UHGV virus genome: UHGV-0178820
Source of the DNA: a virus
Direction: 5' to 3' (one strand)
DNA: 16,682 nucleotides
Of this stretch, positions 8,652-12,986 are shown piece by piece. The notes beneath the pieces were generated by a model that saw nothing but the letters and a program-made list of their open reading frames with translations, was not told the origin of the DNA and did not search any database. Position 1 is the stretch's first letter, and the number at the start of each line of letters is the position of its first letter. The position numbers and the translations under genes are program-made.

Positions 8652-8821
8652 TGCGTGCCGCGTTTATCGGTTTATTACCGTACCCGACTCGTTTTTGGGC
8701 TTCTGCGCTAATTGCAAAGCCGCATACCCTTATGGCTGACAGCATCATCCCGGCACCAAAGCGCCATACCGGTATTGCAGCTGCACGACGCGAAGCAAAG
8801 AAACGCAGGAGAGCAAAATGA
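8651..8821 (+). CDS. Possible small protein (56 aa; hydrophobic N-terminus, basic C-terminus), not in the ORF track
   Basis: TAATG overlap with the Ea22-like gene stop; AAAGGAGG SD 6 nt upstream; hand translation MRAAFIGLLPYPTRFWASALIAKPHTLMADSIIPAPKRHTGIAAARREAKKRRRAK. Confidence 0.4.
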   Translation: MRAAFIGLLPYPTRFWASALIAKPHTLMADSIIPAPKRHTGIAAARREAKKRRRAK

Positions 8822-9003
8822 TGAAAAACCGTAAGGCAAAAATTCTGTTAGCTCGCAGAAACGGCTTTGATGTCTGGCGGTGGGTGAGGATTAGTAACAG
8901 GCGAGTAAGGTTGACGGGGTGTTGCGGGGTGATGGGGCACAGTTGTTGCAAAAAGCCCAGCGCGGCGCAAAACCGCTGGAAGAATCACACTAACGCAAAG
9001 TGA
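8818..9003 (+). CDS. Possible small basic Cys-rich protein (61 aa; CC...CC motif)
   Basis: ATGA overlap with the upstream small ORF; AGGAGA SD 6 nt upstream; very basic with CCGVMGHSCC. Confidence 0.4.
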   Translation: MMKNRKAKILLARRNGFDVWRWVRISNRRVRLTGCCGVMGHSCCKKPSAAQNRWKNHTNAK

Positions 9004-9021
9004 TTAAATAATAACCAATAG

Positions 9022-9068
9022 CAGGCCAAAACATACGTTTTGGTCTGCCAAAAGTAGTGTTTTGGTCA
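9022..9068. promoter_or_regulatory. Two tandem palindromic units (GCCAAAAC-ATAC-GTTTTGGTC and GCCAAAAG-TAGTG-TTTTGGTC); candidate operator or RNA structure
   Basis: Each roughly 22-bp unit is itself an inverted repeat (CCAAAA...TTTTGG) and the two are direct repeats of each other; located in the intergenic gap just upstream of the 9071 gene. Confidence 0.5.
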
Positions 9069-9070
9069 TT

Positions 9071-9349
9071 ATGAAGATTGAACAAGTCGGAATGGCAGCT
9101 TTCAGGCAACAGGCTGAAAGCGGTGGCGTGGATGAGTTCGTCGTGCAGCGGTTCGGTGGTGTGTATCACCTCTTCGCTGTGAATCGCCGCGCCGGGGTGT
9201 CCTATTTTCTACAGGAACGCCGTGGCGATTACAAGACGTGGCTGTCTCTTGACCGTGCCGCCGCGTTCCTGTCGGGGATTGGTGTTTCACGTTTTACCGT
9301 GCGTTTTGAGGATAACAAACATGCTGAAAAAGATGATCGGGGCCATTAA
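9071..9349 (+). CDS. Hypothetical protein (about 92 aa) immediately upstream of and overlapping gemA
   Basis: ORF in frame with track ORF 9062-9349; weak RBS; start uncertain (9062 TTG, 9071 ATG or 9092 ATG). Overlaps gemA by 29 nt in a different frame. Confidence 0.45.
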   Translation: MKIEQVGMAAFRQQAESGGVDEFVVQRFGGVYHLFAVNRRAGVSYFLQERRGDYKTWLSLDRAAAFLSGIGVSRFTVRFEDNKHAEKDDRGH

Positions 9350-9734
9350 AGCCGGTCAGGCATATCTGGGGTGGGATGATGCTCTTTATCGCCAGACACT
9401 GGCCCGCCTGACAGGTAAAACCAGCACCACACGCTGCAACCTCGATGAACTGCGCATCATCCGGGAATACATGCACGAACAGGGATTTCCGCGTAAAGCC
9501 CCCGCCGGTAAAGGTCGCCGCCCCCGTGTGGCAATGAGCAGAAAATCGGTATTATCCAAAATTGAAGCGTTGCTGGCTGATGCCGGTCGTTCCTGGGCAT
9601 ATGCGGAAGGACTGGCATCTCACATGTATAAGCAACATGTGATCGAATGGCTGACAGATGATCAACTGTTCGGGGTGATGGTGGCGCTGACAAAAGACGC
9701 CAGAAAACGAGCCAGAGCAGCACGTAAACAATAA
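9321..9734 (+). CDS. gemA: GemA-like protein (Mu gp16 family, DUF1018)
   Basis: Pattern ...LGWDDALYRQTLARLTGKTSTTRCNLDELRIIREYMHEQGF... matches the recalled GemA signature; GAGGA upstream of ATG 9321; position just before the late activator as in Mu. Confidence 0.75.
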   Translation: MLKKMIGAIKAGQAYLGWDDALYRQTLARLTGKTSTTRCNLDELRIIREYMHEQGFPRKAPAGKGRRPRVAMSRKSVLSKIEALLADAGRSWAYAEGLASHMYKQHVIEWLTDDQLFGVMVALTKDARKRARAARKQ

Positions 9735-9741
9735 AGAATCA

Positions 9742-9766
9742 GCCCCTGCCTTGCAGGGGCTTTTTT
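9742..9766 (+). terminator. Rho-independent terminator after gemA
   Basis: GCCCCTG (9742-9748) / CAGGGGC (9754-9760) stem with 5-nt loop followed by TTTTTT (9761-9766). Confidence 0.8.
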
Positions 9767-9771
9767 GTGGT

Positions 9772-9800
9772 CTGTACAGGCGATCATGTATGGCTATAAT
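9772..9800 (+). promoter_or_regulatory. Candidate sigma70-type promoter for the Mor/C-family gene (-35-like TGTACA, consensus -10 TATAAT at 9795-9800)
   Basis: TATAAT hexamer 30 nt upstream of the ATG with a 4/6 -35 match 17 bp upstream; directly follows the gemA terminator. Confidence 0.5.
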
Positions 9801-9829
9801 AACAGTAAGTTACTACCGGAGACGCCATC

Positions 9830-10297
9830 ATGCAGACCTTCAGTGAAACAGATCTTCGCGATGCGCAGGCACTGCTGCCCGATTCCGTGCAGCAACTGAT
9901 TAGCGTGATTGGCTTCCCCGCCCTGACCCGGTTAATCCGTTCTTTTGGTGGCGTGACGTTAAGCGGTAAAACCGGCGCACACGCAGGACGCACCGGCGGT
10001 GTCCATGCCCTGTTACATGACGTGCTGACCGAAGACGAAATCAACAAACTGATCCGCTTTCTTGGCGGTGCACCGTTTTACATTCCCCGTTGTGATCATG
10101 CTTTACGTGCCCTGCGTAACACCCGTTTTATGGCTGATTTACAGCAGCATGTAAAAGGCGGATGCTCACACCGGCAGGCGCTGGCACTGCTCTGTCCCCG
10201 TTACGGCATTTCAGACCGGTACGCATGGCAACTGATACACCGACGACAAAAACAGACTTCGCTGAAAAGCCCCACCCAGGTGGGGCTTTTTGATTAA
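9830..10297 (+). CDS. Mor/C-family transcriptional activator (middle/late gene activator homologue)
   Basis: C-terminal region FYIPRCDHALRALRN.....GCSHRQALALLCPRYGISDRYAWQLIHR matches the recalled Mu Mor/C pattern (YIPR......R..R, then HTH). Located between gemA and the lysis genes. Confidence 0.75.
   Translation: MQTFSETDLRDAQALLPDSVQQLISVIGFPALTRLIRSFGGVTLSGKTGAHAGRTGGVHALLHDVLTEDEINKLIRFLGGAPFYIPRCDHALRALRNTRFMADLQQHVKGGCSHRQALALLCPRYGISDRYAWQLIHRRQKQTSLKSPTQVGLFD
10268..10291 (+). terminator. Rho-independent terminator overlapping the 3' end of the Mor/C-family gene
   Basis: AGCCCCAC / GTGGGGCT stem followed by TTTTT; the stop codon (10295-10297) lies just after the T-tract, so the hairpin is encoded within the last codons. 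Confidence 0.7.
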
Positions 10298-10324
10298 TGA
10301 GACTCAGAAAAAAGGAGACACGAA

Positions 10325-10612
10325 ATGATGAGTTCTGACACCAATATCGACTACGCAGCACTCGGTGAATATACCGCATTTTCAGACAAGGCCCGGGATG
10401 CAGCCCGTCGCCGACATGCTGAGATGTGTAATTTATCCAGTTATCTGGCGAGACAGGCCCAAAGCCCGGAGTCAGAAACGAATCATAATGAAGTGCTGTC
10501 AGCCGTAAACAGGATGCTGGACGCAGAACGGGAAATGCGTAAAGCCGTGGAAAGAGCTAACCTGCTTGCGCAGGCGTGTTATAAGCCACCATTAAAACTC
10601 GCTTCCCTTTAA
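10325..10612 (+). CDS. Hypothetical protein (95 aa) between the activator and the lysis cassette
   Basis: Consensus SD AAGGAG 9 nt upstream of ATG 10325; helical, charged composition; no family recognised. Confidence 0.6.
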   Translation: MMSSDTNIDYAALGEYTAFSDKARDAARRRHAEMCNLSSYLARQAQSPESETNHNEVLSAVNRMLDAEREMRKAVERANLLAQACYKPPLKLASL

Positions 10613-10630
10613 CCCATCCAGCTAATCAAC

Positions 10631-10659
10631 CTGCCGGGGGTGCTGAACACCCCCAGCAG
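10631..10659 (+). promoter_or_regulatory. GC-rich hairpin/palindrome (GGGGGTG-CTGAA-CACCCCC, extendable to about 11 bp with one mismatch) in the leader upstream of the lysis cassette
   Basis: Inverted repeat without a following T-tract, within a 187-bp intergenic region that has no convincing -35/-10 pair; candidate activator-dependent late promoter element or RNA structure. Confidence 0.4.
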
Positions 10660-10799
10660 TACCCACCACACCAGACCGTTTACCCTGTCCACTCAGACCA
10701 CAAGGCACCTTAAGGGATAGCGCCCTGCAAAAGGCTTATGTGCCTTTGACAGGGTGTTATTTACGGGCCGTCAGTGGCTCAGATTTACAGGAGAAACTC

Positions 10800-11213
10800 A
10801 TGTCTGAACCCTTATCAGGCGGCGGAGCTGTGGCAGTCACCATCGGTGGTGCCAGTGTGTTTGGCCTTCTCACCAATACCGATTTCGGGGTTGTGGTGGG
10901 CGCGTTTGCCGGGGCGCTTTTTGTTGTCACGCAGCAAAAAGAAATCCCGGTATGGCGAATGGCCATCCACCTGCTCGTCGCGTTTGTGGTTGGCGTTCTG
11001 GGGGCTGGCGTGGCTGCGTCACTGATGCAGTGGCTACTCCATTACAACGACAAACCGCTTGATGCATTGTGTGCGGTCGGTGTCTCGGCGTTATCCATCA
11101 AGATACTGACCTTTTTTTATCAGCAGGAAATCAAAGTCCTGCTCGGTATGTTCTCAAAACTGTTCAACCTCGTATCAAAGTTGTGCGGTGGAGGGGGAGA
11201 AAATGGAAAGTAG
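10800..11213 (+). CDS. Putative holin-like membrane protein (about 137 aa, roughly 3 predicted hydrophobic helices)
   Basis: AGGAG 6 nt upstream of ATG 10800; three hydrophobic stretches; first gene of the cluster that contains the endolysin. Confidence 0.55.
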   Translation: MSEPLSGGGAVAVTIGGASVFGLLTNTDFGVVVGAFAGALFVVTQQKEIPVWRMAIHLLVAFVVGVLGAGVAASLMQWLLHYNDKPLDALCAVGVSALSIKILTFFYQQEIKVLLGMFSKLFNLVSKLCGGGGENGK

Positions 11214-11499
11214 TTTTGCCGGTATTGTGAACGTCTGGCTGTGTCTCGCCATTGTTCTGGGGTTGTTTGTGTATCGCCGCCACGGTGCGGCGCATAAGCC
11301 GATGATTACCTGGCTGGCGTACTGGCTGATGCTCGGCTACATCATCATCCCGTTCCGCTGGCTGTCCGGTACATACACGCACTCCAGCTGGCTGGTTGTG
11401 GCGCTGAATCTGGTGTTCTGTGCGCTTATCGTGTGGGCGCACGGGAATTTGTCAAAAATCCTTTCGTTACTGAGGCATCCACATGAAATCAAAAGATGA
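11203..11499 (+). CDS. Small membrane protein (98 aa; possible second holin or antiholin)
   Basis: GGAGGGGG upstream of ATG 11203; hydrophobic helices (IVNVWLCLAIVLGLFVY, WLMLGYIIIPF, WLVVALNLVFCALIVW); overlaps neighbours at both ends. Confidence 0.5.
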   Translation: MESSFAGIVNVWLCLAIVLGLFVYRRHGAAHKPMITWLAYWLMLGYIIIPFRWLSGTYTHSSWLVVALNLVFCALIVWAHGNLSKILSLLRHPHEIKR

Positions 11500-12934: not shown

Positions 12935-12940
12935 CCACAG

Positions 12941-12960
12941 CGGCCCGGTTTTCCGGGCCG
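12941..12960 (+). terminator. Strong GC hairpin (CGGCCCGG-TTTT-CCGGGCCG) between small and large terminase genes; terminator- or attenuator-like
   Basis: Perfect 8-bp GC stem with a 4-nt loop, followed by TCTGATATTT (weak T-tract); sits in the 52-nt gap before terL. Confidence 0.4.
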
Positions 12961-12986
12961 TCTGATATTTGTATACCAGGTGTGAC

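Follow-up and report, generated by a model that had tools for sequence, protein, structure and literature searches.

A conserved and probably conditional expression cassette around the only Mor/C-family activator gene of a Mu-like prophage

Bacteriophage Mu is the reference model of transposable phages, and a cascade in which early transcription leads to Mor, Mor to C and C to the late genes is usually assumed for its relatives. In the Mu record (AF083977), mor (8781-9170) overlaps gemA and is followed, 9 nucleotides (nt) after its stop codon, by a predicted terminator (9179-9200, t9.2) inside the middle promoter Pm, and C (9963-10385) ends inside the 5′ arm of a terminator just before Plys. 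Since both activator genes end with terminators, a terminator at the 3′ end is the norm of the Mor/C family. A two-tier cascade as such is not new: a single Mor is annotated next to the GemA homologue of Burkholderia phage KS10, and in Pseudomonas phage Fc02 the homologues of gemA and mor belong, by RNA sequencing (RNA-seq), to the early pE operon, with the late clusters after it. Here we analyse the Mor/C-family gene of the virus genome UHGV-0178820, a stretch of 16,682 nt (hereafter, the window) that forms the left half of a transposable, Mu-like prophage. The gene has a sigma-70-type promoter, P_mor, in front of it, and lies between two intrinsic terminators, T1 upstream and T2 at its 3′ end. 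We propose, with moderate confidence, that the prophage expresses its only Mor/C activator from a conserved, self-contained cassette, that this activator is C-like and works in a two-tier cascade, and that T2 acts conditionally. What is new is the position of a terminator before the stop codon, where it shares its bases with a clamp-binding motif; the locus is a new regulatory variant of the known Mu system, not a new kind of system.

As in Mu, the protein is of the Mor/C family and its gene has gemA on one side and the lysis genes on the other; a hairpin terminator lies at the end of the activator gene; the predicted activator-dependent promoters lack a -35 element and carry a dyad of 16 base pairs (bp) near -43.5; and the protein ends, as does Mu C, with a Q-x-x-L-F clamp-binding motif. 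By contrast, there is one activator rather than two and no middle operon, and a terminator and a -35/-10 promoter separate gemA from the activator gene, whereas mor of Mu overlaps gemA. T2 is shifted about 30 nt upstream relative to its Mu counterparts, with the stop codon beyond the release point. The protein also differs from Mu Mor and C in lacking the N-terminal clamp-binding motif, in having insertions of about 19 and 9 residues and in being only 20-28% identical to them, and its predicted site, GCTGA...TCAGC, is unlike the TTAT-N5-6-ATAA of Mu C (PMC12867686).

A first-pass annotation, made from the letters of the window, had described the gene as a monocistronic unit between two terminators. 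All of the elements that it named are present at the positions it gave, with minor refinements only, and its interpretation is partly supported. The upstream terminator, placed there at 9742-9766, is T1, which has a stem at 9741-9749/9753-9761, a CTT loop and a T-run at 9761-9766 followed by GTG; it begins 7 nt past the gemA stop codon, and its fold energy is -17.7 to -18.1 kcal/mol (centroid -17.7; z = -2.7 against shuffles). A strict rule (an unbroken stem of ≥7 bp, ≥5 of them GC, with a loop of 3-6 nt and a T-rich tail), applied to both strands of the 16.7-kilobase (kb) window, returned T1 and T2 as the only sites, flanking the sole Mor/C gene. Dinucleotide shuffles gave a mean of 0.03 sites under the same rule and never two, and the pair is thus beyond chance expectation.

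To place this arrangement among its relatives, homologues were gathered from the protein database, species genomes and viral contigs, and their upstream regions sort into three types, A, B and C. Type B is the arrangement of the window. Its 27 loci, 22 of them distinct, come from E. coli, Salmonella and Edwardsiella, and their activators are as little as 54% identical; each of the 22 has T1, the promoter and T2. Type A is equally represented, with 22 distinct loci, in which gemA abuts or overlaps the activator gene. None of these has a P_mor-type promoter and 21 of the 22 have no upstream terminator, the exception being L015 with one about 100 nt upstream in a relaxed scan; a terminator follows the stop codon in 2/22 and lies inside the open reading frame (ORF) in 0/22, unlike the intragenic T2 of the window. 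Mu-like phages of this type (Pseudomonas Fc02 and other D3112-like phages, Burkholderia KS10) have a single Mor/C gene beside gemA and then the late clusters. Loci L025, L007, L010, L011, L016 and L017 are of this type. Type A activators are of the same protein subfamily as that of the window, and at least some enterobacterial members (L025, L010 and L011) have the same late box ahead of their lysis genes. Type C is found in Xenorhabdus, Photorhabdus and Morganella (L006, L008, L012, L013, L047-L064), with activators 44-55% identical. As in the window, the mor upstream region of type C is detached from gemA and contains a hairpin and a T-run; unlike the window, it has no TGTACA-16-TATAAT promoter, and no hairpin overlies the final codons of the gene. 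The type C activator gene has a late-type box with a correctly spaced -10 (e.g. AATACT) some 130 nt ahead of it, and a leader hairpin with a T-run abuts the ribosome-binding site, a layout that suggests positive autoregulation with a leader attenuator. One activator subfamily would therefore come in at least three wirings, namely, within the early operon, under its own sigma-70 promoter between terminators, and under a late-type, probably autoregulated promoter, and many relatives would run a two-tier cascade with a single activator.

The T1 variants of the type B loci were folded one by one, since unrelated hairpins align out of register. They comprise 16 sequences built on at least five unrelated stems (stem types CCCCTGC, CCTCCGC/CCTTCGC, CCCCGCC, CCCTCGCA and CCCTGCC), and all of the variants fold into a hairpin followed by a T-run, with energies of -13.9 to -24.0 kcal/mol. 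Replacement of the stems with pairing kept points to selection on T1 as an RNA structure. The gene preceding T1 differs among the prophages, and homology between E. coli prophages resumes exactly at T1. Different prophages carry different accessory genes between gemA and T1, one for a protein of 158 residues without a family (L002 3714-4190) and another for a protein of 175 residues that belongs to PHROG 19473 (L021 2359-2886); despite these insertions, a terminator stands directly before the promoter in every case.

P_mor is the best sigma-70 match in the window (10/12), and the TATAAT at 9795-9800 reported by the first-pass annotation is indeed accompanied by a TGTACA 16 nt upstream; transcription is predicted to start near 9807. 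On its own the site is not beyond chance, given that a perfect TATAAT with a -35 element matching at 4/6 positions turns up in 37% of shuffles. In seven type B variants, however, CTGTACA, GATCA, TATAAT and the 16-nt spacing are invariant, while the rest of the spacer and the leader diverge, the leader sequence differing between lineages. From a core that stays invariant while its flanks diverge we infer selection for a promoter, and P_mor is credible because it is conserved across lineages, not because of its score in the window. P_mor and T1 share a gap of 95 nt between gemA and the activator gene. The promoter has its own -35-like hexamer, and a late-type box is absent upstream of the activator gene in the window. 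Neither a LexA site nor a good CRP match was seen by eye at P_mor. Two kinds of candidate operator were rejected: the palindrome AGTAAGTTACT (9804-9814) at the predicted start is missing from the leaders of Salmonella and Edwardsiella and recurs in the window no more often than chance allows, and the CTTTCTTTTC-type and GGATAAC repeats of the early control region (about 1030-1190), considered as repressor or Ner operators, have no copy near 9770-9830. A literature search on the Mu semi-early promoter upstream of gemA and on the Mu-like prophages of E2348/69 gave nothing usable.

The spacer of P_mor contains a GATC (9782-9785). This tetranucleotide is strongly depleted in the window (18 sites, where base composition predicts about 64), 14 of the 18 sites fall in two regulatory regions, 66-1499 at the left end and 9335-10094 around gemA-mor, and the P_mor-spacer site is the only one invariant across all type B lineages; the pattern may point to a link with Dam methylation or replication. 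The string TGTACA-N3-GATCA occurs once in the window. A second copy of the promoter-spacer motif, CTGTACAGGgGATCA (identical to P_mor at 14/15 nt), lies at 887-901 of L001, in the 5′ end of the transposase gene of that related prophage, and has no equivalent in the window.

T2 lies within the coding sequence. The first-pass annotation had held that the last ten codons encode a second terminator hairpin, and T2 does overlie codons 145-154, with a fold of -20.6 kcal/mol (z = -5.0) that none of 200 shuffles equalled. Its core stem (10268-10275/10280-10287) closes a CCAG loop, A/U pairs extend the stem to 10264-10291, and the U-tract spans 10287-10291. The TAA stop codon is beyond the hairpin, 9-11 nt past the core stem, and both stem and U-tract precede it. 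The last 33 coding nt, AAA AGC CCC ACC CAG GTG GGG CTT TTT GAT (KSPTQVGLFD), thus serve two ends at once: SPT comes from the 5′ arm, QVG from the loop and 3′ arm, and LF(D) from the U-tract. That a terminator in the coding 3′ end is unusual, as the first-pass annotation had it, needs to be narrowed, as terminators at the 3′ end are the norm in Mu; it is the placing of hairpin and U-tract before the stop codon that is unusual. T2 is found in every type B locus, a statement that rests on folding each variant separately, because a relaxed terminator scanner missed T2 and one T1 variant when the stem was lengthened by G-U and A-U pairs at the expense of the T-run; the promoter/terminator scan of the window likewise did not list T2, probably since the A/U stem extension uses up the T-run.

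The last 11 codons are the most nucleotide-conserved part of the gene in four diverged lineages (0.889, the mean being 0.662; first among 145 stretches of that length), with third-position identity of 0.73-1.0 compared with 0.33-0.71 elsewhere in the gene. In Edwardsiella, an A-U pair of T2 has become G-C by changes on both arms, a compensatory replacement that alters the protein from T to A and from V to A; the other changes in T2 affect its loop or A-tract. The Q-x-x-L-F(-D) peptide is also found in types A and C, where other codons encode it and no hairpin forms; the hairpin of T2 is therefore not a by-product of the peptide. In the L037 variant the loop changes from CAG to CTG (equivalent to 10277-10279 of the window), which converts the Q of the clamp motif to L and leaves the hairpin intact. 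The 5′ flank of T2, GCTGAAAAGCCC (10261-10272), was considered as a cryptic late box for the downstream gene orf95 and rejected: it is not conserved in Edwardsiella, and its would-be -10 is lost in E2348/69. Nor do T1 and T2 qualify as dyads bound by the activator: their stems are not conserved in sequence, bear no resemblance to the late box and are wrongly spaced to any -10.

In intrinsic termination, RNA is released about 7-9 nt past the stem. At T2 this would be at 10293-10295, before the stop codon is complete, and T2-terminated transcripts would thus be non-stop. It was shown with engineered reporters that ribosomes strongly, near-completely, repress an intrinsic terminator placed a few bp past a stop codon or late in an ORF, that uncoupling of translation relieves this repression, and that termination inside an ORF triggers trans-translation (Li et al. 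2015, PMC4824070). T2, late in a translated ORF, and T1, 7 nt past a stop codon, are in the very positions found to be repressed there; unlike the lambda tR2 used in those constructs, T2 is natural, conserved across genera and coincident with a peptide motif. By analogy, the insulation of the cassette is probably conditional.

The activator scores 28.3 bits against Pfam Mor (PF08765), just above the cut-off of 24.9, matches PHROG 836 ('late transcriptional activator') over its full length (E = 1e-42) and is, in the alignment, 28% identical to Mu C and 20% to Mu Mor. The family profile compared with PDB retrieves the 'Late transcription activator C' chains at E = 9e-4 and Mor at 0.76. The protein has the core common to Mu Mor and Mu C, that is, the LGG-x-x-F/VYIP linker and the helix-turn-helix region that follows it, and P17, G79, Y84, I85, P86, R96 and L121 are invariant when both Mu proteins are aligned. 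The published clamp-binding consensus for Mor/C proteins is QPDLF at the C-terminus and Qx[DE][LM]F at the N-terminus (PMC12867686), and the C-terminal motif is needed for Mu C function and has been reported as a feature of the family (Ho and Harshey 2026, PMC12867686). Here the C-terminus matches with QVGLF (residues 150-154; QVGLF-D, 150-155), a putative clamp-binding motif, and the N-terminus, MQTFSETDL, has none. A Q-x-x-L-F(-D) ending is found family-wide in the alignment, Mu C included, and is weaker in Mu Mor, which ends with QPSLL.

The activator is single. A profile built from the family together with Mu Mor and Mu C was run on the window and on L001 plus L020, which make up a closely related complete E. 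coli prophage covered but for the leftmost ≤1 kb, and no second Mor/C-family ORF was found in either, the next-best match having E = 0.67. The claim of a sole Mor/C homologue therefore holds in the window, as well as in the complete relative, the check beyond the window having likewise been proposed in the first-pass annotation; its novelty does not, since single Mor homologues are already annotated in KS10 and Fc02. Mu Mor is the last early gene and coupled to gemA, but here T1 and a promoter intervene; Mor also activates the middle promoter that drives its paralogue C, and here there is no second Mor/C ORF; and C of Mu is itself under an activator-dependent middle promoter, whereas the gene in the window has a promoter with its own -35 and no late-type box. 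A single activator acting directly on the late operons is likely.

The region 10613-10799, singled out in the first-pass annotation, contains a candidate activator-dependent late promoter before the lysis genes, with a predicted +1 near 10693. The conserved box GTGCTGAACACCC is found there, at 10639-10652, between orf95 and the holin, and recurs at two places of the related complete prophage, one between the gpG-like gene and the protease (gpI-like) gene and the other ahead of the GP46/baseplate genes. Across many genera, 31 non-redundant boxes give the consensus GCTGAACCCCcTCAaC, with a TAnACT -10 at a fixed 40-45 nt. The box is 16 bp long and consists of 5-bp inverted repeats (some perfect, as in GCTGA-ACCCTC-TCAGC) around a GC-rich spacer of 6 nt, centred near -44. 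This predicted geometry is the same as that published for the Mor site in Mu Pm, which has 16 bp, 5-bp inverted repeats and a 6-nt GC-rich spacer and is centred at -43.5 (PMC4390567). The predicted +1 positions of the head and baseplate promoters (L001 18614; L020 11482, minus strand) coincide with, or lie within 1 nt of, the A of the annotated ATG, and either these mRNAs would be leaderless or the annotated starts are wrong.

Between T2 and this promoter lies orf95, whose ribosome-binding site starts about 20 nt past T2. The promoter scan found no promoter-like site for it on the + strand within 9800-10325, and T2 must therefore leak; the unit is not strictly monocistronic. The gene is conserved: it immediately follows the activator gene in type B, and in type A it does so at least in L025, with equivalents at L002 4785-5063 and L025 3458-3757. 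In E. coli it exists in two allelic forms, and the allele switch comes right after the mor stop codon. The strongest + strand stretch of C over G in the window, 10595-10673 (C-G = 0.27 over 78 nt), begins shortly ahead of the orf95 stop codon, continues through the untranslated gap and overlaps the late box; it is compatible with a Rho-loading site that would halt T2 read-through before the holin.

From the gemA stop codon onwards, the elements follow in the order T1, sigma-70 promoter, 23-nt leader, activator gene, T2, orf95, and late promoter with lysis genes, and the cassette most probably works as follows. T1 would close the early operon and shield P_mor from incoming transcription and occlusion. 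P_mor would yield a transcript of about 485 nt, and T2 would restrict transcription into orf95 and the lysis genes. The activator would then bind the GCTGA-N6-TCAGC-like dyads of 16 bp near -44 ahead of three operons (lysis, head and baseplate). T2 would be suppressed when a ribosome follows RNA polymerase closely, which would let orf95 be expressed, and transcripts that do end at T2 would have no stop codon. T2 is the positional counterpart of the terminators of Mu mor and C, and its own 3′ arm and U-tract also serve as the QVGLFD codons.

Four other readings of the locus have to be weighed. The first-pass annotation viewed it as a sealed monocistronic unit with the dose of activator set mainly by leakage through T1 and T2, which we consider somewhat unlikely. 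Two strong canonical terminators do flank the gene, and T1 lies so close to the gemA stop codon that ribosome coupling can modulate read-through (PMC4824070); nevertheless, P_mor is conserved as strictly as the terminators, which is not expected if supply comes by read-through, and the dependence of orf95 on read-through at T2 breaks the seal. Of the monocistronic unit, therefore, the conservation of T1, promoter and T2 as one module stands, and the strict separation from the gene downstream does not. It is decidedly unlikely, in our judgement, that the TATAAT promoter is inactive or irrelevant and that mor is the last early gene, as in Mu and type A, with T1 weakened by the ribosomes on gemA. 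This would agree with the type A loci, where gemA abuts or overlaps mor with neither terminator nor promoter between them, with the early pE operon of Fc02, with the frequency at which an equivalent site arises in shuffles (37%), and with the danger that a constitutive promoter for a late activator seems to pose to a lysogen. Yet the promoter core is unchanged in seven variants in which hairpin and leader have been replaced, and a terminator stands immediately upstream in every type B locus, whichever gene precedes it.

The remaining two readings concern the hairpins. If the conservation of T2 reflected protein constraint on the clamp-binding motif only, the hairpin being incidental, the U-tract would simply be the codons CTT TTT of a C-terminal Q-x-x-L-F(-D) that is conserved across the family and functional in Mu C (PMC12867686). 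We find this very unlikely in view of the third-position identity, which at 0.73-1.0 exceeds that of the rest of the gene, of the 5′ arm, which encodes KSPT or PSPA and is not conserved in other clades, of the codons used by types A and C, such as TTA TTT GAT, which form no hairpin, and of the T-to-A and V-to-A changes of Edwardsiella, which pair in the stem. Highly improbable is a role mainly at the level of DNA, as dyads bound by the activator or as conserved linkers for module exchange, even though the predicted terminator after mor of Mu lies inside the middle promoter and homology between prophages breaks exactly at T1 and just after T2. T1 stems that differ wholly and keep pairing and T-run fit an RNA structure and not a protein site, as does the compensatory change in Edwardsiella T2, and neither hairpin resembles the GCTGA-N6-TCAGC late box. 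Spacing is unfavourable too: T1 is centred near -56 relative to P_mor, and P_mor already possesses a -35; for T2, a start point 43 nt beyond the hairpin centre would fall past the ribosome-binding site of orf95.

Several points weigh against the cassette that we prefer. The activity of P_mor, the efficiency of termination, the binding sites of the activator and the ribosomal and non-stop consequences of T2 are inferred. An always-on, near-consensus promoter before a late activator is hard to reconcile with stable lysogeny, and an operator or other control element was looked for in the sequence at P_mor and not found. Because T1 is 7 nt after the gemA stop codon, early transcripts may, by analogy, read through it, and mor may be driven largely by the early promoter, as in Mu. 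T1 and T2 sit at mosaic joints, and recombination, not selected termination, could account for part of their conservation. T2 has a single compensatory event in its favour, and the -10 elements of the three predicted late promoters of the prophage are weak (TACCCT, CATCAT and CAGACT).

The Mu counterpart of the late activator is toxic when overproduced, and the locus raises the question of how a lysogen tolerates a near-consensus promoter before such a gene. One speculative answer, which we regard as unlikely, is that T2 serves as a post-transcriptional gate: mRNAs ended at T2 would be non-stop and their product SsrA-tagged and degraded, only ribosome-coupled transcripts would give stable, full-length activator as well as orf95, and the GATC of the spacer could tie P_mor to replication. 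Were both the gate and the Dam-site reading true, a near-consensus promoter could stand before a lethal late activator without killing the lysogen. Irrespective of this, T2 is a natural, conserved terminator before a stop codon, useful for studies of coupling between ribosome and RNA polymerase and of non-stop mRNA, and the presence of the cassette in E2348/69, a strain that is standard in the laboratory, makes experiments practical.

Table 1. Features of the activator locus and its surroundings (window coordinates unless a locus is named)
Feature	Coordinates	Strand	Details
T1, intrinsic terminator	9741..9768	+	9-bp GC-rich hairpin AGCCCCTGC-CTT-GCAGGGGCT plus TTTTTTGT
P_mor, sigma-70-type	9773..9800	+	-35 TGTACA 9773-9778, 16-nt spacer, -10 TATAAT 9795-9800
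Leader (predicted)	9807..9829	+	23 nt; Shine-Dalgarno GGAG 9818-9821, read from sequence
Mor/C-family activator gene	9830..10297	+	155 residues; stop TAA 10295-10297
T2, intrinsic terminator	10264..10291	+	overlies codons 145-154 of the activator gene
orf95	10325..10612	+	PHROG 7152, E = 9e-52; no Pfam match
Candidate late promoter before lysis genes	10642..10686	+	box GCTGA-ACACCC-CCAGC 10642-10657, weak -10 TACCCT 10681-10686
Head (protease) late box	L001 18559-18606		candidate, related complete prophage
Baseplate late box	L020 11536-11489	-	candidate, related complete prophage
gemA-like gene	9321..9734	+	last gene before T1; Pfam GemA PF06252, E = 3e-18
Repressor gene	first in order	-	Ner-like gene next
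Transposase A and B genes	after Ner-like gene		named from Mu-like order and RefSeq labels in L001
Accessory early genes			followed by GemA, Mor-family gene and orf95
Two holins and GH108 endolysin	right of orf95		followed by DUF1804, large terminase and portal

The gemA ORF is open from a GTG at 9222, and the start given in Table 1 is the RefSeq-equivalent one; at the equivalent position L001 carries the RefSeq label 'regulatory protein GemA'. Of 5,426 complete E. coli genomes, 58 (about 1%) carry the cassette, at 96-99% identity; one of them is E2348/69, where it lies at about 2726174-2726733 of NC_011601.1. In the collection of isolated phages the cassette has zero nucleotide matches, and protein relatives there are at most 41% identical. 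A search for known RNA families over 9000-11300 gave only sub-threshold matches, to terminator-like ends. Further to the right, between DUF1804 and the large terminase gene, there is another stable hairpin (12940-12961; -22.3 kcal/mol, z = -4.8), followed by a poor T-run.

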